Shown here: in pieces, positions 29,087 through 50,162 of the stretch
How the letters are laid out: every line of letters begins with the position of its first letter
How positions within the stretch are numbered: position 1 is the first letter of the stretch
Assembly (NCBI GenBank): GCA_016194505.1
Contig: JACQBK010000051.1
Span: forward strand, 1-60,165
Length of the DNA stretch: 60,165 bases
Direction: 5' to 3'
Origin: Ignavibacteriales bacterium
GTDB taxonomy: Bacteria > Bacteroidota > Ignavibacteria > UBA10030
Notes under the pieces: generated by a model
Told to the model about the DNA's origin: nothing
The model's database searches: none
The model's input: only the letters and a program-made list of their open reading frames with translations
Translations under genes and position numbers: made by a program

Positions 29087-30454
29087 TCAAGCAAGGATAA
29101 CGCTGAACGTAGAGCCTTTCCCGACTTCGCTTTTCATCTCCAACTGATACCCCATCATATCGCATAACAAGCGGGAAATAGCAAGCCCAAGTCCCGCACC
29201 GCCATATTGGCGTGAAGTGAGATTATCCGCTTGTTGAAATGCCTCAAAAATTGCTTTATGCCTGTCTTCTGGAATGCCGATGCCCGTATCAATCACATCT
29301 ATACGCACCGGACGATGCGCAGCCGGTTCAACTGTTACGCGAACAACCACTTCTCCTTGTTCCGTAAATTTCAATGCGTTGTTTAAAAGATTGATAAGCA
29401 CTTGTTTGAGTTTATTCTCATCGGCTTCTATGAAATCAATCGTTGGAGGGAGATCGACGTGAAGTTGAACGCCCGGATTGGCTGACGTATCTTGTAGAAG
29501 AAAGGCAGCATCGTTAACAATCTTATCAAGTGAAACCTTATTCAAATGAAGTTGGGGGCGCGCCGCTTCAAGCCTCGTAAAGTCAAGAATATCGCCAATC
29601 AAAACAAGCAGCAGCTTGCCATTGGCGACAATACGTTCAAGAAACGAAATATCATCTTGCTCCAATGCATGCATTTTGCGTTTTAACAACACATTGGCAA
29701 ACCCAATAATGGAGTTCAACGGTGTTCGAAGTTCATGGCTCATGTTAGCAAGAAACAGGCTCTTTGCGCGGTTTGCCTCTTCAGCTTTTTTTCGTGCATC
29801 CTGCAATTGTTTTGTGAGCCGTTGAATCTTCACTGCTCTGTTCCGCAGTGCGCCTTGCGAGCTAAGAGAGATGTACATGCCAGCCGCGTACACAATTAAC
29901 ACTTTGAGAATTTCGATAGACCAACCGAGGTGGCGTTGTTCAACGTATCCCATGTAAAGCAACAGGAGGCCGTAAAACAACACGGAACAGTGCGTAAGGA
30001 ACAGAAGGCGTCCGAAGCTTGTATGTGTTTGATCAACAACATGCATGATAACAATAAAAAATACCCAGCTTTTTTCTCCGCCGGAAAAATAAACACCCAA
30101 CACGAAAAAAATAATATCTACGACGATAAAGAAAAGGCCTAAGTCCAAACGCTCCATTCTCGTGTAGAAGAACCACAGGAGTATCCACGAAATAAATGAG
30201 TATCCGATGAATATTGAGATAATCGTGAAGACGCTTGACCATGAAAAGTAATCGAGGAAAAAATAATTGTGAGCAATAATGCCGGCGGTAACGAGCGAAA
30301 AGCCAATGAGGCGGGTGATAGGAATTTGCACAACGTTGATATGACGCAAAAAAGCGCTCGACGTTGGAAATCCTTGCATCTCTGTGCCCAGTTCGGATAA
30401 TACTTGTTGTATATTCAATGTTTTACCATGGGATAAGAAGAACAGCGGCTCCAT
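29087..30454 (-). CDS. Membrane sensor histidine kinase
   Basis: The 455-aa product has ~6 N-terminal TM helices. It has a HisKA H-box ([15 protein letters not shown]) and HATPase_c N/G boxes ([12 protein letters not shown]; DTGIGI; GGAGLGLAI). Confidence 0.9.
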
Positions 30455-30510
30455 CCACGAACAAAACTACAACAATGGCACTACGACCATGAAGGAAACA
30501 ATACAACCTT

Positions 30511-31254
30511 TTATTTCTCAGTCTTTCTTGACGTGGTCTCGAAATTATCGAGAAGCATTGAGAACATGGGCTCTATTTCATCGAGCTCGCTGTCAATAAA
30601 GTAAGAAATGCCATCACCAAAGGAATGAAGAATAACAACGGCATTCACGTTGGCGTCTTTTTTGGAAGCATTAACCAACCGTTGGGACATACCCTTGTTG
30701 ACAAGGTTGACGGATTTGTAAATCTCCTGTAACTTTTTGAGCGTCCAATCCGGCTCTTTTCCTTTTCTCAGAAGGAGAAATTGAGCCGTAAGATATGCTG
30801 ATACAGAGCGAAAAAAAGTCTCTATGGAAGTTGCAAACGGAAGATGAAACCGGGTCATCGGGCGCAGCTTATCCATCACCGGGCAATTGCTGGTCACCAT
30901 GTAAACTCCGATAATAGAACTTAGTCCTTTTTGCAGCGTGGTTTTCTTCTGATAGATTCGTTGAGCGGTTTCAACCGTAACGACGGTGGACTCAAATGAA
31001 ACGTCATTGCGGAACGTCTCTACCAATTTCGAGAGATTGACTGCAACGGGACAATACTCAACGCCATCTGCAAGGGGGCAGTTTTCGCATTGAAAGTATT
31101 TTAGTTTAGTCCATTCGGGCTTCGGCTGGTCTTTGTCCTGAATGAGCTCAAGCGATTGAGCATCCAAGAGTATTTCAAACTCTGTTGTCGTGCCATTTTC
31201 AAACTGGAACTTGTAGAGATAGCGAAGAACTTCCGTGTGCTTATCGTTAGCCAT
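30511..31254 (-). CDS. Uncharacterised soluble protein with a CxxCP...YCP motif, embedded in the two-component operon
   Basis: The 247-aa ORF has coding-like composition and short gaps to its neighbours on the same strand. It carries the Cys motif FQCENCPLADGVEYCPV plus a later conserved-looking NCPV. I recognise no family. Confidence 0.55.
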   Translation of the reverse strand: MANDKHTEVLRYLYKFQFENGTTTEFEILLDAQSLELIQDKDQPKPEWTKLKYFQCENCPLADGVEYCPVAVNLSKLVETFRNDVSFESTVVTVETAQRIYQKKTTLQKGLSSIIGVYMVTSNCPVMDKLRPMTRFHLPFATSIETFFRSVSAYLTAQFLLLRKGKEPDWTLKKLQEIYKSVNLVNKGMSQRLVNASKKDANVNAVVILHSFGDGISYFIDSELDEIEPMFSMLLDNFETTSRKTEK

Positions 31255-31330
31255 AAGAGCGTTTGGATTATCCTAGGCATTCGTGTAGAATACCGCGCCA
31301 TGATGCTGATGTATAAAATAATGAGTTGAA

Positions 31331-32002
31331 TTATGTAGCTGTCCGCAGTGCCTGCAAGCGTTTCGTAATTTCTTCCGCATTGATTTGGCCGCTTTCAATT
31401 TTGCCTTTTTCAAATTCGCGGAGCGAAAAATCTATAAGTGCTTGGATCGTTGAAGCCATTTTCGAATTTTTTTCTATCGCTTCCTCAATCAACTTTTGAC
31501 GTTCTTTCGATTGAGAGGCTGAATGCAATTTTGCCGCTCGGCCAAGTTGGCCTTGGATCGCCTTGAGCGGTTCTAGTAAATCGTGCAGAAACAGGGAGGA
31601 ATATTGCTCTTGCACTTCATACAACGCTTTTTCGGAAGAGCGGGAACGTAAGAGCGATTTGAGGCGGGTTACGAGTTCGGTCGTGTCAACAGGCTTTACA
31701 AGATAATCCCGCGCCCCCATTTTAAGACACTCGATGGCGGTGCTAAAATCCGCAAAGCCCGTGAGCATAATCACCTCTGTATGAGGATACTCCTGGCGGA
31801 TGAGCGTTAACGCTTCGATGCCGCTCATGCGAGGCATATTAATATCCAGCAGTGTAATATCGGCCGGTTGGGATTTTAATTTCTCCAGCGCCTCTTCGCC
31901 ATCGCCTGCAACATCCACCTCAAAGCCTGCAGACGCGAGCTTGAATTTCAAAGACATGCGGAGACTTTCCTCATCATCTACCACTAAAATTTTATCGTTC
32001 AT
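31331..32002 (-). CDS. Response regulator receiver fused to a DHp (HisKA-like) helical domain with no ATPase domain
   Basis: The 223-aa product has a canonical REC domain (ILVVDDEES...TLLDINMPRMSG...VIMLTG...KP). A C-terminal H-box-like FLHDLLEPLKAIQGQL follows within a helical region. No N/G1/G2 boxes are present. Confidence 0.8.
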   Translation of the reverse strand: MNDKILVVDDEESLRMSLKFKLASAGFEVDVAGDGEEALEKLKSQPADITLLDINMPRMSGIEALTLIRQEYPHTEVIMLTGFADFSTAIECLKMGARDYLVKPVDTTELVTRLKSLLRSRSSEKALYEVQEQYSSLFLHDLLEPLKAIQGQLGRAAKLHSASQSKERQKLIEEAIEKNSKMASTIQALIDFSLREFEKGKIESGQINAEEITKRLQALRTAT

Positions 32003-32029
32003 GCTATCCTCGTTAAAAAAGATTAATAG

Positions 32030-33139
32030 TTATCCTTGAGCAACCGGCAAAGTAAAGCTGAACGTTGTTTCTTTGCCCGGGTCACTTTGTACAGCGACGG
32101 TTCCTCCTTGCGCTTCAACGATCAATTTACAAATCACAAGACCCAGCCCCGTCCCTTTTTGTTTTACCGTTTTCGCGGACGATGCCTGTTTATACCTCGA
32201 GAACAGAGTTGGGATTTCATCGGGCATGATGCCCACACCGTTATCAGTAATGCGTACACGCACAAATTTTCCGTCTTTGTTTTCCGGATCCATTTCGGCT
32301 TTGATGCAGATGGCGCCGCCACTCTTCGTGAACTTTTGGGCGTTACTTAAAAAATTCATCACAACTTGTTCCGTCTTTCCCGGATCAACATGGACATCGG
32401 GCAACCCCGGCGCGTACTGTGTTGTTACCGTGATATTTTTTTGCTTCAACTGCAATCCCATTTGTATGAGAATGGGTTCAATAAAGCGGGAAACAGGAAC
32501 ATTCGACTTCTCGATGGTAATATTGCCCCTTTCGTACTTCGAGAGATCGAGGAAGTCGCTGATCAATTCGAGAAGTTTTTCCGCAGAGCCATGCGCTGAT
32601 TGGAGTAACTCCACATGGTCATCGGAAAGAGGAGACCCCGGCGGCGCATCTAAAACCAACTCCACCACGCTTTTAATGCCAATGAGCGGACTGCGCAAAT
32701 CGTGAACAAGCATCGCCATAAAATCTGCTTTCGTTCGCTCAAGCTCTGCCTCTGCTTTTTTGATACGGATGAGCATTTTGGTGCGCACCAGCAGTTCTTC
32801 GGTATCAATAGGCTTCGTCAAGTATTGGTCGGCGCCTAACGCCAAGCCCTTTGCGATGCTTTCAACATCTTTCTTTTGCGCCGTCAGGAAAATTACCGGA
32901 ATTTTCGCCGTGATGGGGTTCGCCCGCAAACGCTTCAGCGTTTCAAAGCCATCCATCTCCGGCATTTGAATATCGAGCAAAATGAGCTCCGGGGTTTTTT
33001 CTTGCGCGATTTCAAGGCACTGCTTGCCGCTTGTTGCTCTCAGCAAGTGGATCGGCTTTCTTTTTAACGCAAACTCCAAAAGATCTAGGTTGTCTTCAGT
33101 ATCATCAACGACAAGTATTGTTGGTTCCTCGTTAAACAT
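32030..33139 (-). CDS. Receiver-histidine kinase hybrid (REC-HisKA-HATPase_c)
   Basis: The 369-aa product has an N-terminal REC domain (ILVVDDTEDN...LLDIQMPEMDGF...IFLTAQ...KP). It has the H-box MLVHDLRSPLIGI and ATPase boxes (FLSNAQKFT; DNGVGI; GTGLGLVI). Confidence 0.9.
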   Translation of the reverse strand: MFNEEPTILVVDDTEDNLDLLEFALKRKPIHLLRATSGKQCLEIAQEKTPELILLDIQMPEMDGFETLKRLRANPITAKIPVIFLTAQKKDVESIAKGLALGADQYLTKPIDTEELLVRTKMLIRIKKAEAELERTKADFMAMLVHDLRSPLIGIKSVVELVLDAPPGSPLSDDHVELLQSAHGSAEKLLELISDFLDLSKYERGNITIEKSNVPVSRFIEPILIQMGLQLKQKNITVTTQYAPGLPDVHVDPGKTEQVVMNFLSNAQKFTKSGGAICIKAEMDPENKDGKFVRVRITDNGVGIMPDEIPTLFSRYKQASSAKTVKQKGTGLGLVICKLIVEAQGGTVAVQSDPGKETTFSFTLPVAQG

Positions 33140-33156
33140 CGTTACCTCACTTCAAA

Positions 33157-36057
33157 TTAATGTGTTGCGTTCAATATGCGTTTGATTGTGTTGGTCATTT
33201 CTGCCGTCGAGAACGAATCTTTCTTAAAATAATCGGCAATATGCGCATTCAACTGTCGTTGCTCATCTTCGGATAATTCTTTGCCGGAGAGAATGACCAC
33301 CGGAATTTTTTTCCACTGTTCCTTCTGTTGAAGCTCGCGAACGACTTGAAACCCATCCATCCCCGGCATGATTAAATCCAGGAGAATGAGTGAGGGCAAA
33401 GACTCATCTAAAATTTTAAGCGCTTCCTTGCCGCCTGTTGCGATCCGCACGTTGAAGCCATCCCTCTTAAGCAAATCTTTGAAGGCGAGAGCAAAATCTT
33501 CATGGTCGTCAACGAGCAGAATAAACTGATCATTCGATTGATAATAACGCTTGACGAGGGAAAGAAGGCGTTTCGGCTCGGTGGGTTTCGTCATCACATC
33601 CACAGCGCCGAGAGACATGGCAAGAGGCTTATTTTCCACGATGGAATGGATAATGACGGGAATATCCATCGTATCCGGATTTTGTTTCAACTCCCGAAGA
33701 ACCTGCCAACCATCCTTTCGGGGCATCATAATATCGAGTGTGATGAGCGCGGGTTTTATTTTCGCTGCGGCTTCTACTCCTTCTTCACCCGATAGCGCGC
33801 CAGTGACCGAGTAGCCTTCGGGCACCAAATATTTTCTCAATATTTCGATAACATCAGGGTCATCATCAATACATAAGATTTGGACACCTTGAGGTTTATC
33901 CCCTTGTTTTTGTAATGTTTCCTTAATTGCCGCCATTGATGGCGCGGTTCTGGGCGGCGGCGGAATAGTTTGAGGCTTCAGGTCAGTCTTTCCACCGGCG
34001 GCTTGTTGCTGTTGTTGCGGCAACGTCGGAGGAATTGTCAATATGAATGTAGAACCGTGACCATATTCGCTATCCACGGTCAGGTCGCCGCCTAACATGC
34101 GTGCAAGCTTGCGTGAAATAGGGAGACCTAAACCCGTGCCTTTATATTTGCGCGTGTTGCTGCTATCCACTTGCTTGAATTCTTCAAAGACCAGATCAAA
34201 ATTCTTTTTCTCGATACCTATGCCGGAATCTTTAATGGCAAATGAAACCATATCCCCCTGTTGCTGAACGTTAACGAGAATTTCACCTTTCTCGGTAAAC
34301 TTGGAGGCGTTGCTTAACAGGTTGACAAGAATTTGGCGGACTTTGACAATATCCGTGGTGAGCGTTGGCAGATTTTGTTGAATATCCTGAACCAACGATA
34401 ACTTCTTTTGTTGAATCAGCGGCTCAACGATGAGCATGCAGTTGGAAACGACAGAAGGAATATCTTCACTTTCGACACTCAGCGTCATTCTGCCCGATTC
34501 CAGCTTGGAAAGATCAAGAATATCGTTGATAAGTTGCAGGAGATGTTTTCCATTTTTAAGGACTTTCTCAAGCGCCATCCGTTGATCGGCTGTGAGCGGA
34601 TCGCCGTTTGGACCCAATAAAACCGAGCTAAATCCGATAATGGAATTAAGCGGCGTTCGCAACTCGTGAGACATGCTGGAAAGAAAATCCGACTTGACCC
34701 GATAGGCTTTTTCCAACTCGGAATTCTTAGAGTTCAATTCTTCATTGCGTTTAGCAATCTCAAGCGAGAGCTTGCGTGTTGCGTCATCGTTCATCGCGTT
34801 GGTGATGGCAACGCTTAACTGCGGAACGGAGTTGTTGACGATTTCCTTCTCTAAATCGCCAAATTTTTTCATCGAGCCGAGCACAAGTACCCCAAGAATG
34901 CGCTCCTGAAACATAATCGGCACTGCCATAATATATTGCGGCAGCAACTCGATCAAACCGGTGTCAACGGAAAAACCGGTCGAGGCGGGGATGTCATCAA
35001 TTTCTAAAATCTTTCCCTGTGCGGCGCATTGGCCAGGGATGCCTTCTCCAATCGCGAACGATTTAATCGTTTCGCCTTTGCTCTTCAACGCATAGCCGCT
35101 TACAAGCTCCAACATATTGCTTTCGCGATTGACAATATAGAGCGCGCCAACCGAGGCTTGCGTGTGCGAGCACAGAAGGCGAAGGCTTTTCTTTTCAACG
35201 TCCTCGATGTGCTCAAGCGAATTTAGCGTTGTCACAAGCTCGGAGTATGCTTGGAGACGCGTATAGTTGTTCCCCAGCATGGCTGACATTTTGTTGAAAT
35301 CACCTGCGAGGTCACCCAGTTCATCCGATCTGTTGAGGGTGATGGGTTCAAATTTCCCCAACATAATATTCTGCGTTCCATTTTTGAGAAGGCGAATAGG
35401 CTTTGTGATAGAACGGGTGAGCACAAATCCTAATGCCAAGGCAAAGATGGCAAGAAGGATATTGACAAGGCCGATAAATTTTCCCAAGTCACTGCTGAGG
35501 CTTGTTGCTAATTCGATACTTCTTGGTTGAGAGGCGATTTTATGTGAATAAAGATCGCGTATAATTTTTCGCGCGTTTGGGATATATTGTATTTGAGCTT
35601 CTATTTCGGCAAGAGTACGTAGTTGTGTTTGAAATGCCTTGGGGTCCTTTTGAAGATTTTTATTGTCACCCAGCAAAATCAGCGAATCACCAACATTTTG
35701 CATCCAACCGAAATAGAGTTCCCGGATTTGCTTTATATCTTGAATTGCAGAACTATCGGCATAATCTTTCTTCAATGTGTTCAGCGCATCATCAAATTCT
35801 TTCCAACCTGTTTCGTAGGTCGCTTTTGCCAATGCCGATGCGGTAAAGGCATATTCGTTTGCCGCCGCCGGAACATCGTTAATGTAACGACGGACTTTTT
35901 CTATATCGCCAAGCGTTGTGATATCCGCCGAGGCGATGCTAAAATTCTGCTCGATCTGCGAGAGAATCCTCAGCGTGAGGAATGTCATCGTCGTAAGGAT
36001 GACAAGCAGCAAGGCGAAGTTCGCGAGCACTCTCCAATATAATTTTGATTTCAACAT
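33157..36057 (-). CDS. Hybrid sensor histidine kinase (2 TM periplasmic sensor-HAMP-GAF-HisKA-HATPase_c-REC-REC)
   Basis: The 966-aa product has two TM segments flanking a ~160-aa extracytoplasmic region, then a HAMP domain (TKPIRLLKNG...ELGDLAGDFNKM) and a GAF-like region. The H-box is [15 protein letters not shown] and the ATPase boxes include GTGLGLPI. A P/Q-rich linker precedes two canonical REC domains. Confidence 0.9.
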   Translation of the reverse strand: MLKSKLYWRVLANFALLLVILTTMTFLTLRILSQIEQNFSIASADITTLGDIEKVRRYINDVPAAANEYAFTASALAKATYETGWKEFDDALNTLKKDYADSSAIQDIKQIRELYFGWMQNVGDSLILLGDNKNLQKDPKAFQTQLRTLAEIEAQIQYIPNARKIIRDLYSHKIASQPRSIELATSLSSDLGKFIGLVNILLAIFALALGFVLTRSITKPIRLLKNGTQNIMLGKFEPITLNRSDELGDLAGDFNKMSAMLGNNYTRLQAYSELVTTLNSLEHIEDVEKKSLRLLCSHTQASVGALYIVNRESNMLELVSGYALKSKGETIKSFAIGEGIPGQCAAQGKILEIDDIPASTGFSVDTGLIELLPQYIMAVPIMFQERILGVLVLGSMKKFGDLEKEIVNNSVPQLSVAITNAMNDDATRKLSLEIAKRNEELNSKNSELEKAYRVKSDFLSSMSHELRTPLNSIIGFSSVLLGPNGDPLTADQRMALEKVLKNGKHLLQLINDILDLSKLESGRMTLSVESEDIPSVVSNCMLIVEPLIQQKKLSLVQDIQQNLPTLTTDIVKVRQILVNLLSNASKFTEKGEILVNVQQQGDMVSFAIKDSGIGIEKKNFDLVFEEFKQVDSSNTRKYKGTGLGLPISRKLARMLGGDLTVDSEYGHGSTFILTIPPTLPQQQQQAAGGKTDLKPQTIPPPPRTAPSMAAIKETLQKQGDKPQGVQILCIDDDPDVIEILRKYLVPEGYSVTGALSGEEGVEAAAKIKPALITLDIMMPRKDGWQVLRELKQNPDTMDIPVIIHSIVENKPLAMSLGAVDVMTKPTEPKRLLSLVKRYYQSNDQFILLVDDHEDFALAFKDLLKRDGFNVRIATGGKEALKILDESLPSLILLDLIMPGMDGFQVVRELQQKEQWKKIPVVILSGKELSEDEQRQLNAHIADYFKKDSFSTAEMTNTIKRILNATH

Positions 36058-36123: not shown

Positions 36124-36498
36124 TCACGAGTTCAAATATTTTTGTATGAGATTGAGCAGTTCCTCGGGGTCCATCGGCTTCGAGTAGTGCTCGGCACAGC
36201 CGATTTCTTTCGTGCGCGCTTTGTCTTCGGGTTTCGCCTGCGCCGTAAACGCGATGATGGGAATATGCTTCGTCCTCTCATCTGCCTTTAAAAGGGGAAC
36301 AGCCTGCCAGCCATCCATCACGGGCATCTGCATGTCCATCAAAATTAAAACCGGCGTTTTGCTGAACGCTTTTTCAAGGGCTTCCTGACCGTTCTCTGCA
36401 ATCTCCAGCTTTACATCTAAGCGGCTGCGGGAAATCACAAAGCTTACCAAATCACGGCTGTCCTCGTCATCTTCGACAAGTAATAGTGTCTTGCTCAT
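36124..36498 (-). CDS. Single-domain CheY-like response regulator
   Basis: The 124-aa product has canonical REC residues (LLVEDDEDS; LILMDMQMPVMDG; IIAFTAQA; YSKP). Confidence 0.9.
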   Translation of the reverse strand: MSKTLLLVEDDEDSRDLVSFVISRSRLDVKLEIAENGQEALEKAFSKTPVLILMDMQMPVMDGWQAVPLLKADERTKHIPIIAFTAQAKPEDKARTKEIGCAEHYSKPMDPEELLNLIQKYLNS

Positions 36499-38557: not shown

Positions 38558-38967
38558 GGAATTCGAGATACTATGAAATTTGGATGTTAATTATGGTGAC
38601 GGAAGAATTCTTTCTGTTCGCACACAACAGTTGTAGAATTTCTGACCACTCACACATTTCGCCCCTTATTGTTACTCCCATCATACAAAGGTTCACAAAA
38701 ATTGTCTCAAAGAAAAATTATGAGAAACTACGGAAAACAACAGATTAAGCGGGAGGATAAGACTTTGGTGCAGGACAGCAAGCGTTTTATGATTGCAGTC
38801 ACTTACAACTCCAAAGCTGCCCCTCCATCCACTTGTTTTTTTGTATTTTCCTGCTGAATATTCGTCCATACCGATTATTCATTGTTGCCTTGTCCCCAAG
38901 TTTCATCTTCACCGATTGATTGTTGTGTGTCCCTTCCGTCAAAATGAACGGTTGCAATAAAAAAACT

Positions 38968-39587: not shown

Positions 39588-40391
39588 TCAGGGCTTTCGC
39601 GGATTTTGTGGAGCAACCACTTGTTGCTGCATGGTTTTCAGATTGCCGCTGAGCGTTTCTTGAAGCCGGGCGGCATAATTCGCATCAGTGAAATTTCCAT
39701 GAAGCACATTCGCCATGTTGAGCATGGATTTTACAGCCGACGAGATAACAGCGTACTCTTGCTTCATCTCCGCAAAGGCTTTTCCCAACCGTTGCTGACC
39801 TTCCGGCGTTACAAACGGTTTCAATTCCGTTTCATGTTCTTGAATATTCAGCGAGACCATTGAAAGCGAATTATTGACGATCTGGACGATGGAAGCAAGC
39901 GTGCTGTGGAATGTTTCAATGGCGATGAGGCTCTTTTCACGCTCACGCTCAATCATCTCGCGTCGTTCTTTTTCTTTTCTAAACAAATAGCGTTCGATGA
40001 CACCCGCAATAAGAACGGAGATATGGTCAATCTCGACATGCTCTTTCCGCACATAATCGTATGCGCCAAGTTTCATTGCCTCAACAGCAATACTTTCAGA
40101 CCCTGCCGACGTGAGCATAACGACGGGCGTATCAATTTTTTGTTCATGCATCCATTGCAGGACGTTCAATCCGGAGATGCCGCCCATTTTGTAATCGAGA
40201 ATTATGACGTCGTACCGGTGAAGTTGGAGCGCAGTCAGCGCCGCCTCGCCTGAATCACAGTCGTCAACCTTAAAATTCCCCGCCGAGGAAAGGACTTGTG
40301 TGATGGCCATGCGAAACGAATCGTCGTCATCAACAACAAGAATGAAGCGTTGGTCTTTATCCCAAGTAGATGCGTTCATAGCACTCTCCAA
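39588..40391 (-). CDS. Response regulator with a C-terminal helical domain of unknown function
   Basis: The 267-aa product has a canonical REC domain (ILVVDDDDS; IILDYKMGGISG; VVMLTSAGS; YVRK) followed by a ~130-aa helical region. It is a paralogue of the 52055..52738 protein. Confidence 0.85.
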   Translation of the reverse strand: MESAMNASTWDKDQRFILVVDDDDSFRMAITQVLSSAGNFKVDDCDSGEAALTALQLHRYDVIILDYKMGGISGLNVLQWMHEQKIDTPVVMLTSAGSESIAVEAMKLGAYDYVRKEHVEIDHISVLIAGVIERYLFRKEKERREMIEREREKSLIAIETFHSTLASIVQIVNNSLSMVSLNIQEHETELKPFVTPEGQQRLGKAFAEMKQEYAVISSAVKSMLNMANVLHGNFTDANYAARLQETLSGNLKTMQQQVVAPQNPRKP

Positions 40392-42218: not shown

Positions 42219-43613
42219 TTAGTCCTTATTCAACCAGATAATAGAATCCGGCTCCGCTTGGATCTGTTTGTCGCGCTTGGGCTCGATTTTAATAGTCGCC
42301 GTTTCGGAAGAAAGCAACGTGAGGAACACCATCGAACCCATGATAATCATCGAAACACCAACTTCGATAACGTTCACGAGATTTTTCATCGCGTACTTAT
42401 TTTCCATCTCATAGAATTCCGCTAACTGGATTGACGTTACTTTGACGCTGCCTGTTTCTGCCGCTGTGCGAAAACGGGAAATGACCACATCGGGAAAGAA
42501 CGTTGTCATTTCCATGGCTTTGGCAAACTCGGTGCCGTATTTGAGCATGGTAGGAATGGCAATATTCTTGATTTGCTTTTCGAGGTAGTGGTTACGGCTC
42601 GATTCGGCTGCGTGCTGGATGGCGTCAATATTTTCGCCGGAGGTGTACATAATGCCAAGGACACGGCAGAACATCTCTGTGCTCGTGTTTTTTAAAATCC
42701 GACCGATATACGGAACACGTATGATAAAGCGGTCAAACATCATCCGTCCATTCGTAGTCATCAAATAGCCGTAGAAGGCCCCCATCATCATACCGATACC
42801 GATGGTAATAGCAAGGAGGTTGTCCTTAATGAGCTGACTGATTTCCAGTGTGGTTTTTGTCAACGGGGGAATATCACTCGCCATCGGACCTAACAACTCA
42901 ACCATCCTAGGCAATAAATATAAGACATAAAACGCCAAAGCGCCAATTAATGCGAGGGAGGTTACCGCAGGCAAAATCATTGAGCTAATTAAACCTTTTT
43001 TAAAGTCGGCTTGGCGCTCGACAAATCTGGCAACGCTTTCAAAAATGGACTTCATATCTCCACTTTTGGATGCGATACCCAGCATTAAGGCTGTATCATA
43101 GCCAAACACCTTGCTTTGGCGCAAAAAAGCCTCGCGCGAATCCACGCCGTCTTTTAAGTCTTTGATGATAGCTTTGAGCGCGCCTTTCAGGTATTTATCC
43201 CGCGCATTTCCCATCATGATATGGAGAATATCGTTGTACGGAAGTTTTTGCTCAAGGAGCTTTGCGCTGGTGCCGATAAAGGCAACAATCTCATCGCTTG
43301 ATGCGGAGAATTGAACATCGTAAAATCGCCGCACACTGCGAACTTCGAATCCGAGTTTTTTGAGAGCGGAAGTGACTTCTTCACGCGAATACGCGCTTTG
43401 CACGCCATCAATAACGCTTTGACCTCTGCTGACGCGGTAACTGTAGCTCTTTTTTCGCTTCACCGATTGGATCGTCCATCCGTTAGTTTTCGCAAGAGCA
43501 TTCGCCCGCTCACGCGCCGCAAAGATGGATGTCGCGGTGATGAAACGCTGTAACGGACGACCGGCTTGGTCGGTGCCTTGTATTCGATATTCAGAGGCTT
43601 TTGGTTGGGGCAT
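42219..43613 (-). CDS. GspF/PilC-family inner-membrane platform protein
   Basis: It has two T2SSF-like repeats, each ending in TM helices, and N-terminal PilC-like cytoplasmic repeats (YRIQGTDQAGRPL...). The stop codon abuts the ATPase start (42219/42218). I place the start at the internal ATG (MPQPKAS...); the ORF track extends to 43652. Confidence 0.8.
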   Translation of the reverse strand: MPQPKASEYRIQGTDQAGRPLQRFITATSIFAARERANALAKTNGWTIQSVKRKKSYSYRVSRGQSVIDGVQSAYSREEVTSALKKLGFEVRSVRRFYDVQFSASSDEIVAFIGTSAKLLEQKLPYNDILHIMMGNARDKYLKGALKAIIKDLKDGVDSREAFLRQSKVFGYDTALMLGIASKSGDMKSIFESVARFVERQADFKKGLISSMILPAVTSLALIGALAFYVLYLLPRMVELLGPMASDIPPLTKTTLEISQLIKDNLLAITIGIGMMMGAFYGYLMTTNGRMMFDRFIIRVPYIGRILKNTSTEMFCRVLGIMYTSGENIDAIQHAAESSRNHYLEKQIKNIAIPTMLKYGTEFAKAMEMTTFFPDVVISRFRTAAETGSVKVTSIQLAEFYEMENKYAMKNLVNVIEVGVSMIIMGSMVFLTLLSSETATIKIEPKRDKQIQAEPDSIIWLNKD

Positions 43614-43769
43614 ACACTGTACAGTACAATAAAAAAATACAAAAAGCAGCACAGAAATTACCTCTGCTGCATTTGAATTATTATCCGTTATCTCCGGTAG
43701 TTCCTAAAGCGCTAAACCAAAGTCTTTACATAAGATAGCTGAACATTAATGAAGTGCGTACATGCTACT

Positions 43770-43991
43770 TCATTGCACCGCATTAGCGGGAACAGTGCGG
43801 TACGTTGCCCCACAGTGATGGCAATACTTTCCCTGCGGGTGAAGGATCGATTTGCCGCATTGGTGGCAGGATTCGATCAATTTGGTGCCGCAGAGAATGC
43901 AAAAAAATTGCTCTTCTGCAACGTGTGAAAAATTTCCGCATTTTGGACAAAGGCGATAGCGATTGTTATTGTTTTCTGAGACGTTTGTCAT
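43770..43991 (-). CDS. Double zinc-ribbon protein (paralogue 1)
   Basis: The 73-aa product has eight Cys in four CxxC pairs: CPKC...CILC...CHQC...CHHC. It shares the pattern YR-x-C-x-x-C-x-N-x-S...EEQ-x-FC-I-x-CGT-x-L-x-E-x-C-x-QC-x-K-x-I-x-H...C-x-x-CGA-x-Y with the 44185..44514 protein. Confidence 0.65.
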   Translation of the reverse strand: MTNVSENNNNRYRLCPKCGNFSHVAEEQFFCILCGTKLIESCHQCGKSILHPQGKYCHHCGATYRTVPANAVQ

Positions 43992-44184: not shown

Positions 44185-44514
44185 TTACGGTCTACGGCGT
44201 GTAAGAAAGTCATTAGTAGGAAATTTCACCTCTAAGCGACGCGTTTGTTCCTTAGCCCAGCTTTCTACGCCAATGGCACCGCTCTTTCGCACCCCTTCTC
44301 CCTCGCTAAGCCTATGAACATCATCATATCGAGCGCCACAGTTATAACAGAACCTGCCGTTAGAATGAATTATAGGTTTTGAACATTGGGGACATTCCTC
44401 TGCAAGCCTTGTCCCGCACCAGATGCAAAAACGCTGTTCTTCCTTTGCAAGGGAGACATTATTGCAATTCGAACAAATTCTGTAGCTATGTGTCACTCGC
44501 GAATGTGAGATCAT
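44185..44514 (-). CDS. Double zinc-ribbon protein (paralogue 2) with a basic C-terminal tail
   Basis: The 109-aa product has CSNC...CIWC...CPQC...CYNC and is colinear with the 73-aa paralogue. A ~45-aa charged extension follows. Confidence 0.65.
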   Translation of the reverse strand: MISHSRVTHSYRICSNCNNVSLAKEEQRFCIWCGTRLAEECPQCSKPIIHSNGRFCYNCGARYDDVHRLSEGEGVRKSGAIGVESWAKEQTRRLEVKFPTNDFLTRRRP

Positions 44515-44526: not shown

Positions 44527-44955
44527 TTAGCTGGGATAGACATAGATTCTATCAATGCCCCATCTGCCACGGTTAAGACCATTCGAAGGGTTCGGATTTG
44601 CCTTGATTGAAACTTTAGCCTTCATTTTTGTTGTAACACCGTTGTACTTTGCCACTACAGTAACGGTTGCCTTATCAACGTCGCTATTGGGATCAATATT
44701 GTAAGTCACTGTATCGCCAAGAACAACTTTCGTATAGATATAGGTTTTCGATTGAAGTGTTCTGATATACGGATTGCATGCAAGCTCATCCAGCGCTATC
44801 TGCACACCCGTTTTGGCAATTTCTTCCGCTTGAATTTGATTCGCGCGGTCAACCGACGCCTGAAAGCTCGTATTTTCGGCGCTCTTAATCCCCAACGTAT
44901 ATGTCCCGATGATGATGGACAACAGACAAAACAGAATAACCTTAATGCTTCCCAT
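44527..44955 (-). CDS. PilX-like minor pilin-like protein
   Basis: The 142-aa product has a hydrophobic N-terminus (MGSIKVILFCLLSIIIGTYTL) followed by a PilX_N-like helix (ANQIQAEEIAKTGVQIALDE). An AAGGGGA Shine-Dalgarno-like sequence lies upstream. It is 14 nt from the preceding gene. Confidence 0.45.
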   Translation of the reverse strand: MGSIKVILFCLLSIIIGTYTLGIKSAENTSFQASVDRANQIQAEEIAKTGVQIALDELACNPYIRTLQSKTYIYTKVVLGDTVTYNIDPNSDVDKATVTVVAKYNGVTTKMKAKVSIKANPNPSNGLNRGRWGIDRIYVYPS

Positions 44956-44969: not shown

Positions 44970-45554
44970 TTACAAATTTACAGGATACACTCTAAACTCT
45001 TTTGTCGCAGTAGAATTGGACAATGTGGTTGATGTTACTGTGCCGGCGGCTGTTGCGCCAATTCTCGCATTCAGTTCGATCCTCATTGCTTTTATTGAAC
45101 TCAATGTGGTTGTATAATTTCCGTTTGCGTCAAAATACTGAAAGGAAAAACTCCGAAGATTTTTTGCAATGGAAAATTCCGTCCCGCCGTTAATGACTCG
45201 CCTTATTTTCCATGTTGTGTCAACGACTGCTTGTGCCCCATTGTACCAAACAGTATCTATCGTGTAGATTCCATAGTAACGAATAACATCAGATCCCCCT
45301 TTGTTATCAAGGTCGGCACGAAATTGTACTGATCTCGCTTTGGCTGAATCAAGTGCCGGCGAACTTACGTTATATCCGGCTTGTTTTATATCTTGATACA
45401 TAATGTTGGCGGATATTTCGAGATTTGCCCTTGTGTTTGCGGCGGCTGTTTTATCGTAAAGAGCTGAATTAAGCGTAACAGTCATGCTTAAAATGATCAA
45501 AATAATTGCGCTCCGAATTAAGGTTGACCCGATTAAATCTAAGAGAAACGTCAT
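44970..45554 (-). CDS. GspJ/PilW-like pseudopilin-like protein lacking a leader peptide
   Basis: The 194-aa product starts M-TFLLDLIGSTLIRSAIILIILS, which resembles a mature type IV pilin N-terminus with Asp at +5. An in-frame TAA at 45561-45563 lies two codons upstream of the ATG. It is the first gene downstream of a sigma-54 promoter. Confidence 0.45.
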   Translation of the reverse strand: MTFLLDLIGSTLIRSAIILIILSMTVTLNSALYDKTAAANTRANLEISANIMYQDIKQAGYNVSSPALDSAKARSVQFRADLDNKGGSDVIRYYGIYTIDTVWYNGAQAVVDTTWKIRRVINGGTEFSIAKNLRSFSFQYFDANGNYTTTLSSIKAMRIELNARIGATAAGTVTSTTLSNSTATKEFRVYPVNL

Positions 45555-45614
45555 GAACTCTTACCAAATATGTATCACAGAATGAAGACAAGATTTTGAG
45601 ATATACTAATACCT

Positions 45615-45630
45615 TGCAAAAACGATGCCA
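45615..45630 (-). promoter_or_regulatory. Sigma-54 (-24/-12) promoter
   Basis: The minus strand reads TTGGCATCGTTTTTGCA, that is TGGCAT-N5-TTGCA with the canonical 12-nt GG-to-GC spacing. It lies ~60 nt upstream of the 45554 start. An NtrC-type activator is encoded immediately upstream. Confidence 0.8.
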
Positions 45631-45709: not shown

Positions 45710-45760
45710 ATTCTGAGCTAATCAGAATTTATATCATTTTGATTCTGAATGATTCAGAAT
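45710..45760. promoter_or_regulatory. Two palindromic candidate enhancer (UAS) sites for the NtrC-family activator
   Basis: ATTCTGA-gctaa-TCAGAAT lies at 45710-45728 and ATTCTGAAT-g-ATTCAGAAT at 45742-45760. Their centres are 32 bp apart, ~97 and ~129 bp upstream of the -24/-12 element. Confidence 0.6.
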
Positions 45761-45904
45761 ATCAGACTACCAAGATTTATAATGGTATTAGGCTTAAAAA
45801 CTGTATAAAACAAATTCTGCGAGGAGAGTCAGCTAAATGTATAAAAAAGAGACATGGAGAGGATTTGGCTGGGAAAAACGCTTAATTTTAGAGGGTATAA
45901 ATAT

Positions 45905-47299
45905 TTAAGAAGAATTTTTCTTTTGGAGTTTGATGCCTAAACGTGAGCATTTATCGTAGAGGGTTTTTTCAGGAATACCCAAAAGTTTTGCACTTTCCTT
46001 GATGTTCCAATTTGTTTGCTCAAGGTAGCGATAAATTACAAGCCGGGCGGCGGAATCTCTTGCATTTTTTTCGACCTCAGGGAGTGATAACCCGGAAGAT
46101 ACCACAGATTCCCCCCCGCCGATCTCTTTGGGAAGATGTTCTAATGTAATAACGCCTCCTGCCGACAGCAACAGCGCGCGTTGAATGACGTTTTCCAACT
46201 CACGAACATTGCCGGGCCAGTGATATTGAAGCATGCAATCTAACGCCACGGGGTCAACGGTGATTTCCGACTTATTCAGGTCTTTACCGAAGCGTTTAAG
46301 GATGTGTTCCACCAACAACGGAATATCTTCTTTATGTTCACGCAACGGGGGAAGCACGATAGGATAGACATTCAGGCGGTAGAACAAATCTTGCCGGAAC
46401 TCGCCCTGCTCCGTCATCGCCGTGAGGTCCCGATTGGTTGCCGCGATCACCCGGACATTCACGGGAATGGGGCTTGCGCCTCCAACACGGTCAATTTCCC
46501 TTTCCTGCAACACTCTCAACAATTTTACCTGAAGATGAATATCGAGTTCCGCAATTTCATCGAGGAATATTGTTCCGCCATCGGCAAGCTCGAACTTGCC
46601 AGGTTTAGTTTGTGTCGCTCCGGTAAATGAGCCTTTTTGGTGACCGAATAATTCGCTTTCGATCAATTCTTTCACAAGCGAGGCACAATTGACAGCGACG
46701 AAGACACGCTGGCTTCGTTTGCTTGCCGCATGAATTTCCCTTGCAACAAGCTCTTTGCCTGTTCCGGATTCTCCCGTAATGAGCACCGTTACATCTGTCA
46801 TCGAAACGCGCTGGATGGATTCAAACACGCGCTCTATAGAGGGTGTTGCTCCAACGATTCTTCCGGAAACGCGCTGGACTTCCTCGCGCAGAAGCTCGTA
46901 ATCGCGTTTTAATTCGCGCTGGGCGAGAGCTTTTTCCACCAGCGTTTTTAGTTCTTCAATTTTGGGAGATTTGGGAATGTAATGATACGCTCCCAGCCTC
47001 ATAGACTCGACCGCGCTTTCGACGGATGCATGTGATGTCAACATGATGACGGGAAAATCCGGCATCTCATCTTTTACCTGTTTAAGGACGTTTAAGCCGC
47101 TCTGACCGTCGCCTAACATGAGATCAAGCAACATGACATCTACCTTTTTGTGGCTCAAAATCTCAAATGCCTCCTTATCCGTCATGGCAGTCAAAACGGT
47201 AAAGAAATTTTTCATCAAAGACTCAAAGTCTTCGAGAAAAATTTTGCTGTCATCAAGGACAAGGAGTGTGCGCAGCTGATCCATAGGACGGTTAGACAA
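45905..47299 (-). CDS. Sigma-54-dependent response regulator (NtrC/PilR family: REC-AAA+-Fis HTH)
   Basis: The 464-aa product has a REC domain (LLVLDDSK...MLLDLMLGDGQSG...VIMLTSH). The AAA+ domain has Walker A GESGTGKE, the GAFTGA-type loop GSFTGA, and Walker B (IFLDEI). A C-terminal HTH follows (NIKESAKLLGIPEKTLYDK). Confidence 0.9.
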   Translation of the reverse strand: MSNRPMDQLRTLLVLDDSKIFLEDFESLMKNFFTVLTAMTDKEAFEILSHKKVDVMLLDLMLGDGQSGLNVLKQVKDEMPDFPVIMLTSHASVESAVESMRLGAYHYIPKSPKIEELKTLVEKALAQRELKRDYELLREEVQRVSGRIVGATPSIERVFESIQRVSMTDVTVLITGESGTGKELVAREIHAASKRSQRVFVAVNCASLVKELIESELFGHQKGSFTGATQTKPGKFELADGGTIFLDEIAELDIHLQVKLLRVLQEREIDRVGGASPIPVNVRVIAATNRDLTAMTEQGEFRQDLFYRLNVYPIVLPPLREHKEDIPLLVEHILKRFGKDLNKSEITVDPVALDCMLQYHWPGNVRELENVIQRALLLSAGGVITLEHLPKEIGGGESVVSSGLSLPEVEKNARDSAARLVIYRYLEQTNWNIKESAKLLGIPEKTLYDKCSRLGIKLQKKNSS

Positions 47300-47364
47300 T
47301 TATTGTCGTTAATAAAAACCAGAGACAATGCAAATGTACGAACGAATTATGTTTTATCAAACTG

Positions 47365-49431
47365 TCAAGGCTTTACAACTTGCAATCGCAACAAAAAGGT
47401 GGTTCCACTATTTTCTACGCTTTCTTTAATACTGATATCGCCGTCATATTTTCTCAGCATAGCGGGCAGTTTTGAAAGCTCCGTCTCCTGGGTATTGTTC
47501 TCTGAAGGCGTGAAGATTGTTCCCCACAGTTGAGGTTCGAGGTAGAGTTTGCTATCCCGCATTTCCAACTCCCAGCGACCACCGACGACCCTCCCCGCAA
47601 ACACAAGCTCCGTTTCTTCGTTTCCGTGCATTTGACCGAGTACATAATGAAGAAGCGTCGCAATTACTTGGGAGAACTCAATTTCCGAAGCAACCACGAC
47701 CGGCTCTGCCTGCGTTAACTGTTCTGCGACTATGAACTTAACGTTTGCGGTGGTCTTGCGCTGCCGATCAAGAATTTCTTGAAGAAGATGATTCGGCTTG
47801 CACCGAAACTCGCTAAACACATATTCCCTCATGACTCGAAATGTATAGAGCAGTTGGTCAACATGCTTTGGAATCGTCTTTTCGAAATTCCGAATATCTT
47901 CAGACTCAATTTTTGGGTTGAGACTTAACGGACGCACAATGGTAGCCAACTCTTGCACGTGAAATTTTAATGCTTGAACGGTCTCGGAGTCGAACGAAAG
48001 CAGTTGAAATTGCTGCGCAATATCCATCAGCCGCGGATGAACTTTCTCCAGAAATTCTATGAGCGAGGCGCGAAACCTGTCGTATTGATACGGTGCGGTT
48101 GTTTCGTTGAGGTTTCGACCGAAAAGAGCGACGCGGTTAATATTCATGTGCCCCCATCCACCATGCGCGAACGGCTGTAACTCTACCAGGAGCTTCTCTT
48201 TTGTTTGCTGGTCAAGGCTTTTTTCTGATGTTCCTTGTGGCAATATATGCGAGCCTGACATTGTTCCGGTTTCCTCTTGTTGATGTTCATCTTCAGAGTA
48301 ACAGTACTGATGGACGTTCGGCGCGATGATCACGCTGAACATTGAGCCTTTTCCCGCTTCGCTCGTCACTTCAAGGCGATAGCCGAGCACATCGCAGAGC
48401 GTCCGGGATATCGCCAATCCCAAACCCGTCCCTCCGTAGCGCCGCGTGGTCGTGCTATCACCTTGTTTGAATGGTTCAAAAATAATTTGTTGCTGTTCGC
48501 GGGGAATACCGACACCGGTATCCATAACATCAACGCGAACAGGTATAGAGGTTAGAGCATCAACCGCTACGCGAATTTTTATTGTCCCGCGCTCGGTAAA
48601 TTTAACTGCGTTGCCAAGAAGATTGACGAGAATTTGCTTAAACTTTTGCCGATCCGTTTGGACGGACTCTACGCGCGTTGGCAACTCAACATGTACAGTA
48701 ATGTCTTTGCCGAGTAATTTTACGCCGAACTGGGCAACCGTGTCGTAAATCAGCACGCTCAGCGATGTTGGCGCGAGATTAACTTCTGCTTGACCTGCCT
48801 CAATTTTGGAGAGGTCGAGGATGTCGTTAATAAGGCTCAGCAAATCTTTACCATTGGCAAGAATTCGCTCAAGATACAATACATCCTGCTCTTGTAAATT
48901 CTTGGCTTTATTTTTTAGCAAAACGTTTGTGAACCCGATAACGGAGTTCAACGGTGTCCGCAGCTCATGGCTCATGGTAGCAAGAAATTCGCTTTTCGCC
49001 TGATTCGCTTCCTCCGCTTTCATTTTGGCAATTTCCAACTGCCCCGATTTTTTCTGTAATTGGTGAAGAAGTGCGTTCAGCATTTCGTTCACTTCCGAAA
49101 GCCTGTTCTTCTTCTCAAGAGTTTCCTCGACATGTCGCTTCGTTCTTCGCTCAAGGTTTTGACGGTGCCGAAGAAAATGTCTTACACCAAAAAAATACAA
49201 CGCCGTACCGACAAGCAATAAGAGCAGTATGCAAAGAACATAAAATATTCTTGTTTGATAAAACAAGGGGGCAAGCCATACGCTCACCACAATGCAAAGG
49301 TTATTCCACAATCCGGAGTTGTTTGCTGGCGTGTTCCAGACCGTCCGCGCTGCGATTGTTTGAACCGCAAGCACTTCAACAAACAGAAAAATCCTTACCG
49401 CCCACGCTCGTATACTTACGTTGGCATGCAT
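47365..49431 (-). CDS. Membrane histidine kinase with a long C-terminal extension ending in a second, degenerate ATPase-like module
   Basis: The 688-aa product has N-terminal TM segments and a coiled coil. The H-box is [15 protein letters not shown], and N/G boxes are present ([12 protein letters not shown]; DTGVGI; GGTGLGLAI). A further ~315 aa end in a region laid out like a kinase CA domain ([11 protein letters not shown]...WELEMRD...GTTFLLRL) without clear G boxes. Confidence 0.85.
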
Positions 49432-49439
49432 TGTTATAC

Positions 49440-49814
49440 TTATGGTGAGTTGTTTATCCAGCGGGCGATTGTTGCAAGAAACGCATCCTCATCAACAATG
49501 GGCTTAGCGACATAGTCATTGAAGCCCACACCGAGGTAACGCTCGCGGTCGCCGGACATCGCGTGCGCCGTCAAAGCTATAACCGGCAGTTTTTTAAGCC
49601 GCTCATCATTCCTGATGTGCGACAAGAGCTCGACTCCATCCATACCGGGAAGAGAAATATCAAGAAGAATAAGCTCCGGGACTTTCCTCTTCAACCCTTG
49701 TAACGCTTCGAACCCCGTAACATATTCGGTTAACTCATACAGTTCGCTTACAATCGCTCGAACAAGAAGACGGTTATCTTTATTGTCTTCGATAAGAACA
49801 ATGGATTTCATCAT
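49440..49814 (-). CDS. Single-domain response regulator
   Basis: The REC motifs are [10 protein letters not shown]; [13 protein letters not shown]; VIALTAHA; YVAKP. I place the start at MMKSIV (49814). The ORF track's longer form (to 49979) adds a non-REC, poorly coding-like leader. Confidence 0.85.
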
Positions 49815-50162
49815 TACTCCTTCCGACATGCCTTCTGATGTACAATTGCCGCAACCCCTCTCCGGAAATTGACCAGGCACCGGATAGAACGCCGAAAAGC
49901 CCAGTTTGGTTGGAGAATCCACTCGAAGAATGGTGATAACCAATTTCACCTCAATACTTCTAAAAAAAGCAATATACAACCTCTCCTCCTTACATATTGA
50001 TAAGTATAACAGGATTAGGCTGAAAGTGCAATACGTTATTCGATACGGTAAGAGCTTATTTTGGGCGGGTTAAGGGGCGGGTGTACTTATCTCGCTCTGA
50101 AAAAGCCGTAGACAGAGTACTTCATTCACAAAGACATTGAGGAAACAACGATTCGTCTTTTT

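Follow-up and report, generated by a model that had tools for sequence, protein, structure and literature searches.

A 21-kb block of signalling and filament genes from an Ignavibacteriales bacterium, on the minus strand of contig JACQBK010000051.1 at positions 29087-49979, is best explained as three modules lying side by side, together with one extra kinase. These are a PilS/PilR-like transcriptional switch, a filament operon, and an autonomous signalling cassette that would act on the filament. We place the probability of this reading at roughly 55%. A first-pass annotation of the window (the whole stretch of 60,165 nt analysed here) had treated the block as one signalling super-cluster; synteny instead resolves it into three evolutionary modules and one lineage-specific kinase. 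After this dissection, the locus is less exotic than was earlier proposed and embodies no new signalling principle. Two-component control of a type IV filament is known; the cassette and the leaderless pilins are undescribed.

Nearly all that is known of type IV filaments and of how they are regulated comes from Proteobacteria, Myxococcus, cyanobacteria, and Firmicutes. The locus shows how such a filament is wired in the Ignavibacteria, an abundant and mostly uncultured lineage, and no paper found in the literature describes pilus regulation in this class. The cis-elements of the sigma-54 switch are now predictable, a cassette is seen to re-associate repeatedly with motor genes, the DUF6901 and CC664 families gain a first genomic context, and a family of leaderless PilW-like pilins is identified. 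The cultured relatives Stygiobacter and Melioribacter carry a simpler link between filament and hybrid kinase, which is testable there. The source organism itself is an Ignavibacteriales bacterium from groundwater that has not been cultured: PilB has its closest homologues (92% identity) in metagenome-assembled genomes (MAGs) of this order, the window encodes a protein with a type IX secretion system sorting domain (Pfam), and its sequence is present in groundwater DNA metagenome runs.

Module 1 (49979-45905) contains the receiver REC179, the kinase HK688, and the regulator NtrC464, which would together form the PilS/PilR-like switch. Module 2 (45554-38968) is predicted to be an operon, pil194-pil142-DZR109-DZR73-PilC-PilB-REC267-pil190, encoding a divergent type IV filament core. 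Module 3 (38557-30511) appears to be a self-contained, separately transcribed cassette of six genes in the order CC664, REC124, HyHK966, RECHK369, RECDHp223, and DUF6901. It resembles no described system in layout and is specific to Ignavibacteria.

The module boundaries are visible in a comparison of approximately 100 related loci, in which each open reading frame (ORF) was compared with the window proteins. Three sets were combined: 80 PilB-anchored loci from species-representative genomes, contigs encoding selected PilB and CC664 homologues, and a metagenome scan anchored on the hybrid kinase HyHK966. The scan returned mostly paralogues and was orthologous only in L084-L087, L090, and L115. 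The arrangement of the block was found again in many related genomes, and the linkage of signalling and filament genes was upheld: of the 22 informative loci whose PilB orthologue is at least 61% identical, 19 have the cassette adjoining PilC-PilB. In the window and 14 other loci (L001, L002, L004, L005, L008, L010-L012, L014, L016, L021, L026, L027, L087), termed type A, the order is NtrC, pilins and double zinc-ribbon (DZR) genes, PilC, PilB, REC267, pilin(s), and cassette. NtrC, DZR73, and REC267 co-occur, and do so in type A only. In the remaining arrangements (types B to E), the cassette is co-directional with PilC-PilB and lies directly upstream (L017, L018, L031) or downstream (L024) of it, in both cases without NtrC or REC267, or is divergent from it (L023, L166) or convergent with it (L168). 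The last locus, recovered from the cassette side, contributes the fifth arrangement. The same six genes in the same order make up the full-length cassette loci, for example L001, L014, L016-L018, L021, L085, L087, L164-L168, and L170; contig ends truncate other cassette loci, and DUF6901 is missing from L169.

A related pattern extends to the Melioribacteraceae, where in approximately 20 loci the genes after PilC-PilB (PilB 48-50% identical) encode weak homologues of both the hybrid kinase and RECDHp223, a receiver joined to a dimerization and histidine phosphotransfer (DHp) domain. The cultured Stygiobacter electus 09-Me (L063) has the order two small ORFs, PilC, PilB, second ATPase, two unknown genes, secretin, HAMP hybrid kinase, and a 221-aa REC-DHp-like protein that is 31% identical to RECDHp223 over its full length. 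As in our block, a same-strand HAMP hybrid kinase and a REC-DHp-like protein of approximately 220 aa follow PilC-PilB. The Stygiobacter locus differs in its PilB (49% identical), in its second ATPase and secretin, and in being without CC664, REC124, RECHK369, DUF6901, NtrC, and REC267. The family-wide pattern implies that, within the class, this filament family has long been accompanied by a hybrid kinase and a REC-DHp protein, which strengthens the functional reading of the link between cassette and filament.

The domain content reported in the first-pass annotation was largely confirmed. All ORFs named there are present at their minus-strand coordinates. Pfam detects HisKA with HATPase_c in four kinases (29087-30454, 32030-33139, 33157-36057, 47365-49431) and Response_reg in nine receivers, encoded by the genes starting at 31331, 32030, 33157 (two stretches), 36124, 36563, 39588, 45905, and 49440. 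The gene at 36563 is the coiled-coil pseudo-receiver noted earlier: its Response_reg score is 30.1 bits against a cut-off of 30.2, and S and K replace the acidic D,D pair. All other receivers of the block retain the phospho-acceptor Asp, Thr/Ser, and Lys when aligned with CheY. The reported absence of chemotaxis genes holds, in that no CheA, CheW, or MCP domain was detected by Pfam in any ORF of 29087-49979; the same is true of HPt domains. Three descriptions required amendment. The unknown protein with a Cys motif exists, but it is DUF6901 (30511-31254, 278 bits). The supposed DHp-only protein has no gene of its own; a DHp without ATPase occurs only in the C-terminal half of the gene at 31331, which had already been counted as a receiver. 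The block does lie on the minus strand, but so does every large ORF from 13789 to 59074, and the co-directionality of this 13.8-59 kb run is therefore no argument for the unity of the block. Two double zinc-ribbon genes are present (44185-44514 and 43770-43991), the second of which had been overlooked. The remaining 39 kb of the window contain a single two-component gene (52055-52738), which is a tenth receiver gene and a paralogue of that at 39588.

As a sigma-54 circuit of the PilS/PilR type, the upstream module is ordinary. REC179 (49440..49979, minus strand, as are all genes of the block) is a single-domain receiver (Response_reg 81 bits) with D57, T87, and K109 present, and is probably translated from near M51-M57. 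It heads a REC-HK-NtrC triad, with orthologues of 56-74% identity upstream of the kinase in L004, L006, L009-L011, L014, and L028. HK688 (47365..49431) is a membrane histidine kinase with 2 transmembrane segments, an H-box at H155, HisKA (74 bits) and HATPase_c (96 bits) domains, and a C-terminal extension of approximately 300 aa with unknown function. Its orthologues keep the kinase core (32-55% identity) and range from 311 to 1404 aa in length, with Reg_prop/Y_Y_Y sensor domains in L001. HK688 is the candidate partner of NtrC464 (45905..47299), a REC-AAA+-HTH_8 protein (Sigma54_activat 242, Response_reg 70, HTH_8 28 bits) that carries a GSFTGA variant of the GAFTGA loop in its translation. 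NtrC464 is a PilR-like sigma-54 enhancer-binding response regulator, and its orthologues (56-77% identity) are present in all type-A loci.

The regulatory elements of this circuit are conserved. Twin palindromes TTCTGA-N5-TCAGAA, both perfect and 32 bp apart, lie at 45743-45759 and 45711-45727. They are the only 2 matches in the whole window, compared with 0.2 expected by chance, and both fall within the 350-bp intergenic region between NtrC464 and pil194; we propose them as a candidate enhancer (upstream activating sequence) for NtrC464. A sigma-54-type -24/-12 promoter, TGGCATCGTTTTTGC (45616..45630, minus strand; TGGCAC-N5-TTGC with one mismatch), stands between the nearer palindrome, 81 bp away, and the pil194 start codon, 62 bp away. 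In 18 of the 21 loci that encode an NtrC464 orthologue, TGGYAY-N5-TTGH comes 85-101 bp after one or two palindromes TTCYGR-N5-YCRGAA, a layout that occurs in none of 4200 shuffled controls (0/4200). The -12 element is often TTGA among relatives. Such a conserved arrangement of palindrome and -24/-12 element is what characterizes sigma-54 promoters driven by a bacterial enhancer-binding protein. Phosphorylated NtrC464 would bind the palindromes (45711-45759) and activate the promoter (45616-45630), leading to transcription of Module 2. A Bacteroidetes-type promoter motif, TTTG-N19-TAnnTTTG, is also present at 47331-47361 (minus strand), within the 65-bp gap before NtrC464. Only 4 such sites occur in the window, and two of the others likewise precede genes (27346, 56683).

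PilS-PilR controls type IV pilin transcription through sigma-54 in Pseudomonas, Myxococcus, and Xanthomonas, the last through PilRX (PMC7170775, PMC6211767). The block shares with these systems an NtrC-family REC-AAA+-HTH regulator adjoining a kinase, as well as a candidate enhancer and a predicted -24/-12 promoter before the pilus genes. It differs in that the target is a whole operon of minor-pilin-like, zinc-ribbon, PilC, PilB, and receiver genes rather than a major pilin gene; the first gene past the promoter is the leaderless pil194, or DZR73 in several relatives. HK688 has 2 transmembrane segments and a variable sensor, in contrast to the six-transmembrane pilin-sensing domain of PilS. 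The other membrane kinase, HK455, has approximately 5 transmembrane segments but is encoded 15 kb away and is not conserved. In addition, the single-domain receiver REC179 before the kinase is an extra component.

The cassette opens with CC664 (36563..38557), which combines a weak TPR signal, a Pro-rich linker, an E/R/K-rich coiled coil, a helical domain, and a C-terminal pseudo-receiver. Homologues span 414-806 aa overall, as the coiled coil varies in length, and the C-terminal region of approximately 270 aa is 54-80% identical in 35 aligned homologues. In the pseudo-receiver, the acidic pair is replaced, either D or E occupies the position of D57, and the Lys varies. With 166 hits the family is small, and all members with a source name come from Ignavibacteriales or Bacteroidota MAGs. 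The AlphaFold2 model of CC664 has a predicted local distance difference test score (pLDDT) of 80, and its REC fold matches receivers generally, FrzS included. REC124 (36124..36498) is a CheY-like single-domain regulator (Response_reg 77 bits; D57, T87, K109), and each cassette copy has an orthologue of it with 63-86% identity. The hybrid kinase HyHK966 (33157..36057) is built from a transmembrane segment, an extracytoplasmic domain of approximately 160 aa with a weak, sub-threshold CHASE3 match, a second transmembrane segment, and HAMP, GAF, HisKA, HATPase, REC, and REC domains. Its residues H464, D731, D732, D851, and D894 are invariant in 24/24 sequences. RECHK369 (32030..33139) has the architecture REC-HisKA-HATPase, that of a receiver-gated cytoplasmic kinase, and D12, D56, K109, and H146 are invariant in all 27 sequences aligned (27/27).

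RECDHp223 (31331..32002) has a strong receiver match (Response_reg 115 bits) and a weak HisKA match (19 bits, E = 0.0014). D53, T81, and K103 of the receiver are kept in 24/24 sequences and D9 and D10 in 23/24, and His140 is retained in 5/17 orthologues. The orthologues in L164-L168 and L170 are 362-364 aa long and bear HATPase_c. Given these longer forms and the unconserved His, RECDHp223 is a degenerate REC-kinase that has lost its ATPase domain in this subclade. A role as a conserved His-phosphotransfer protein was ruled out, since His140 is not conserved.

The last gene of the conserved cassette encodes DUF6901 (30511..31254; PF21842, 278 bits). C56, C59, C68, C124, H137, and H210 are invariant in a 60-sequence alignment and constitute a candidate metal or redox site. 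The AlphaFold2 model is confident (pLDDT 77.5, predicted template modelling score 0.75) and has no fold match in the PDB (best E = 0.06, TM-score at most 0.21), nor was a PDB sequence match found; DUF6901 may represent a new metal-binding fold. The family is not mentioned in any paper found.

Transcription of the cassette is likely to be independent of the filament operon. The two are separated by a 410-bp gap (38558..38967), which marks the module boundary. The gap contains no Rfam family, no repeat, and no Bacteroidetes-type TTTG-N19-TAnnTTTG motif, and no conserved 8-mer was found upstream of the CC664 orthologues. In L085, L164, L165, L169, and L170 the cassette stands alone, so it must carry its own promoter. 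In L002, an insertion sequence (13676-14721; a DDE_3 transposase gene with an HTH_29/HTH_32 gene) lies between the pilin gene and the CC664 orthologue, that is, at the position of the gap. Together with the stand-alone copies, this favours separate transcription of the cassette. The hybrid kinase of L002 is itself split into two ORFs (337 and 455 aa), reflecting either decay or indel errors of long-read sequencing.

The filament operon begins with pil194 (44970..45554), a leaderless PilW/GspJ-like minor pilin with the N-terminus MTFLLDLIGS and an N-terminal transmembrane helix. All 19 aligned sequences, those of 18 orthologues and the window, share M1 and D6, with the consensus MxxxLDxxGS. An exhaustive phmmer search returned 313 representative homologues, nearly all beginning at residue 1. 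The distant homologues P0471, P0492, and P0494 bear canonical prepilin leaders of the G|FTLLE type, for example KKRG|FTLLELLIV, and Asp6 of pil194 aligns with pilin Glu5. It follows from this homology that pil194 is a PilW/GspJ-type minor pilin whose leader has been lost. The leaderless family (P0361-P0510) has the consensus start MxxxLD(I/L)xGS, and removal of the Met would place the invariant Asp at +5, like Glu5. These features suggest that the family may mature without prepilin peptidase. No such peptidase (Peptidase_A24) was detected in the window by Pfam scans.

The small pilin-like protein pil142 (44527..44955) has a hydrophobic helix behind an MGSxK N-terminus, which is conserved in 14 orthologues, with the transmembrane segment at residues 4-22. 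It has no Pfam or NCBIfam match and is only tentatively regarded as PilX-like. The double zinc-ribbon protein DZR109 (44185..44514; Pfam DZR 40.7 bits) has orthologues of 38-47% identity in type-A loci. The smaller DZR73 (43770..43991; Pfam DZR 37.5 bits) is 59-84% identical among type-A loci and missing from those of types B to E. The pilin-like pil190 (38968..39540), which closes the operon, has a short leader (MSMG|QTMIT...), and its MxLGQTM motif is well kept, with M1, G4, Q5, and M7 present in at least 90% of 21 aligned sequences. It follows PilB, or REC267, in all arrangement types. Neither pil190, pil194, nor pil142 matches a Pfam, NCBIfam, or PDB-profile family.

The motor genes are recognizable and divergent. 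The PilC-like platform protein (42219..43652) has two T2SSF stretches (85.7 bits), an N-terminal extension, and 3 transmembrane segments, and its real start is probably at M14. It scores 139 bits with GspF and 126 bits with PilC, both far below the NCBIfam equivalog cut-offs. The PilB-like extension ATPase (40416..42218; T2SSE 348 bits) carries a CxxC...CxxC tetracysteine motif in its translation. It matches the PilB family TIGR02538 over its full length at 447 bits against a cut-off of 676, and GspE at 394 bits, also below cut-off. Homologues with 66-92% identity are found in Ignavibacteriales and Bacteroidota MAGs. Judged by these profiles, the filament system is divergent, with PilB and PilC both present and both below every NCBIfam equivalog cut-off. 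Residues 14-57 of PilB give a sub-threshold match (27 vs 38 bits) to MshEN, the MshE-type domain that binds cyclic di-GMP. In PilB (DLGDLLVEKE...), the key Arg and Gly positions of the MshEN motif are replaced, and binding of cyclic di-GMP by this N-terminus is doubtful. Several Ignavibacteria genomes (L029/L041, L030/L046, L032/L043) encode two PilB paralogues, with 52-57% and approximately 49-50% identity to the window PilB; the class therefore has two or more filament systems side by side.

REC267 (39588..40391; Response_reg 96 bits) is found immediately after PilB in all type-A loci and co-occurs with NtrC. Its receiver is followed by a helical domain of approximately 130 aa at the C-terminus. 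Across 19 aligned sequences, D22, T94, K116, and H162 never vary, and 18 of them retain D21 and D66. The C-terminal domain (residues 130-250) contains the invariant motifs A(I/V)ExFHxTL and ANxLHGNF, with two invariant His. It matches no Pfam family, and a PDB profile search returned coiled-coil noise only. The receiver gene outside the block encodes REC227 (52055-52738), a paralogue with 40% identity to REC267 over 164 aa that is without the invariant His. It is separated from the block by a PMT_2 glycosyltransferase gene (50163-51725), and both genes are missing from the otherwise syntenic L004. In L085, a similar receiver of 250 aa is encoded divergently upstream of the stand-alone cassette.

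The multi-step phosphorelay proposed in the first-pass annotation was not borne out, given the absence of HPt domains and the poor retention of the RECDHp223 His among orthologues. Hybrid kinases are present: HyHK966, with its two REC domains, and RECHK369, each with invariant catalytic residues. A phosphotransfer His site in CC664 was ruled out, as the His is not conserved and is Arg in L023 and L024. Non-canonical phosphotransfer has one candidate site left, the invariant His in the helical domain of REC267. Since the cassette receivers have no DNA-binding or enzymatic output and no HPt is present, a branched kinase network with protein-protein outputs is favoured over a classical phosphorelay.

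We accordingly envisage the cassette as follows. HyHK966 would sense an extracytoplasmic or GAF-bound cue and feed the receiver-gated RECHK369 along with several output-less receivers. REC124 and the CC664 scaffold would then act on the PilB/PilC motor or on motor localisation. As no DNA-binding or enzymatic domain is attached to the Module 3 receivers, the output is probably protein-protein, and we consider it likeliest that the cassette controls the filament motor post-translationally. The comparison establishes the domain content, the limits of the modules, the conserved architecture of promoter and enhancer, and the recurring linkage; the phosphorylation partners, NtrC464 binding to the palindromes, and the effect of Module 3 on the filament are proposals built on these.

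Several observations weigh against the three-module reading. The link from the cassette proteins to PilB or PilC is itself one that we infer. In the absence of an HPt domain, there is no identified route from the hybrid-kinase receivers to other receivers. No secretin, PilT, PilD, or major pilin is encoded in the window, so the filament could serve in motility, adhesion, secretion, or DNA uptake, and the assignment of pil142 and pil190 as pilins draws on N-terminal features only. Groundwater DNA metagenomes were the only runs to match the window sequence, and no RNA sequencing run did so. The cassette lies away from PilC-PilB in five loci belonging to at least three groups. It sits between SpoU methylase and amino-acid permease genes in L164, L165, and L170 and among metabolic genes in L085, and in L169 five of its six genes are followed by cytochrome bd oxidase genes. 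Conversely, L003, L171, and L172 have a filament core (PilC-PilB with three pilins) and no cassette within 10 kb; there, a PAS/HisKA_3 kinase and a LuxR-type regulator precede PilC-PilB and the pilins. Related genomes with unlinked signalling and filament genes, which the first-pass annotation had named as contrary to its proposal, thus exist in part, as stand-alone cassettes and as cassette-free cores. The levels of divergence (hybrid kinase 60%, PilB 68%) are compatible with membership of both sets in the same clade.

The stand-alone copies in unrelated contexts, including that of L169 without DUF6901, raise the alternative that the cassette serves signalling of a general kind, for instance as a sensor of redox state, metals, or the envelope that operates through DUF6901 and GAF. 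It would then be unrelated to the filament, and adjacency would reflect a shared ancestral neighbourhood. It also speaks for this alternative that no cassette protein has a domain known to bind type IV pilus parts. We nevertheless judge it unlikely, for the adjacency survives five rearrangements, including inversions, a pattern not expected from plain inheritance of a neighbourhood. The distant pair of hybrid kinase and REC-DHp protein again follows PilC-PilB in the Melioribacteraceae loci. Furthermore, the output proteins, a CheY-like receiver and a coiled-coil pseudo-receiver, belong to the types that govern motility machines in other bacteria (PMC9811614).

A second alternative concerns what the machine does. 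The PilB/PilC system could be a type II secretion-like or DNA-uptake pseudopilus built solely from minor-pilin-like subunits, with regulators that control secretion or competence. The encoded pilins are all small and PilW-, PilX-, or PilV-like, with no major pilin or PilT in the cluster; the best family match of PilC is GspF, the GspE and PilB scores of the ATPase are nearly equal and both below cut-off, and the Melioribacteraceae version carries its own secretin. Against this, the best match of the ATPase is still the type IVa PilB over its full length, and no secretin or GspC/L/M is present in the window. We consider a pseudopilus distinctly improbable; it would alter the output of the system rather than its architecture and is compatible with the three-module reading.

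That the whole 21 kb is one co-transcribed His-Asp-His-Asp phosphorelay dedicated to the filament, as its dense two-component content, single strand, short gaps, and full type-A order in the window and 14 related loci might suggest, is very improbable and largely refuted by synteny, as the modules separate elsewhere (types B to E and stand-alone cassettes), the 350-bp gap holds its own predicted sigma-54 promoter and the 410-bp gap an insertion sequence in L002, HPt domains are absent and the DHp His is unconserved, HK455 is not conserved with the rest, and the shared direction spans 45 kb of unrelated genes.

The three-module reading can be extended in a bolder direction. The cassette may provide an undescribed, chemotaxis-independent control acting directly on a new class of filament machine in Ignavibacteria and in the wider Fibrobacteres-Chlorobi-Bacteroidetes group, one that polymerises leaderless, peptidase-independent pilins. 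In such a scheme, CC664 would be FrzS/SgmX-like, DUF6901 would provide a new sensory input, and the REC267 His, beside PilB, would be the missing phosphotransfer site. We advance this tentatively and think it has a rather modest chance of being correct.

The filament core has the PilB-type ATPase and PilC platform of a type IVa pilus in divergent form. No PilT, PilMNOP, or PilQ secretin was found among the Pfam-scanned ORFs, which comprised all but three of those of at least 150 aa outside larger ORFs; these components could lie elsewhere in the genome. Relative to the type IVa prepilin leader (G|F/M...E5), pil190 has MxxG|QTMIT, and pil194 has no leader and an Asp6 at the Glu5 position, with canonical leaders in its distant homologues.

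In Myxococcus xanthus, FrzS/SgmX comprises a pseudo-receiver coiled-coil polar beacon recruiting a TPR activator of type IV pili (PMC9811614, PMC7668184, PMC11580455). CC664 likewise has a receiver incapable of phosphorylation, together with a long coiled coil and a TPR-like element, and is encoded near PilB/PilC. Its receiver fold matches the FrzS structures 2i6f, 2gkg, and 2nt3 at a TM-score of approximately 0.8, and it also matches many other receivers. In FrzS, the pseudo-receiver is N-terminal and the coiled coil C-terminal, whereas CC664 has the reverse order. Sequence similarity is that of a generic REC (E = 0.4), so neither shared architecture nor homology is apparent; moreover, no MglA/MglB is present and the TPR signal of CC664 is weak. 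The resemblance of CC664 to FrzS/SgmX is best treated as functional analogy only. Pil-Chp in Pseudomonas and Frz in Myxococcus exert chemosensory control of twitching. Our locus is similar in having CheY-like receivers, REC124 and REC179, near type IV pilus motor genes, with post-translational control likely. It does not belong to these systems, as CheA, CheW, MCP, CheB, and CheR are absent and input comes from classical HisKA kinases. NmpRSTU, which modulates motility dependent on type IV pili in M. xanthus (PMC6211767, PMC11841059), also joins several kinases and receivers with an NtrC-like regulator and touches pilus-dependent behaviour. It differs in not being encoded with pil genes and in governing an oxygen-utilisation regulon.

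At the downstream edge of the block, HK455 (29087..30454) is a kinase with approximately 5 transmembrane segments whose core is closest to that of HK688 (54.5% identity). It follows DUF6901 only in the window and L001 and is absent from L085-L087, L164-L166, L168, and L170. HK455 is a recent HK688 paralogue and a lineage-specific add-on outside the conserved cassette. Beyond it, near 28272-28957, lies a homologue of fatty-acid desaturases that is short (180 aa, profile positions 6-181 of 253) and overlapped by a second ORF (28272-28577); a frameshift or pseudogene is possible. Rfam matches in the window are confined to two tRNA genes, at 12587-12670 (plus strand) and 53127-53201 (minus strand).

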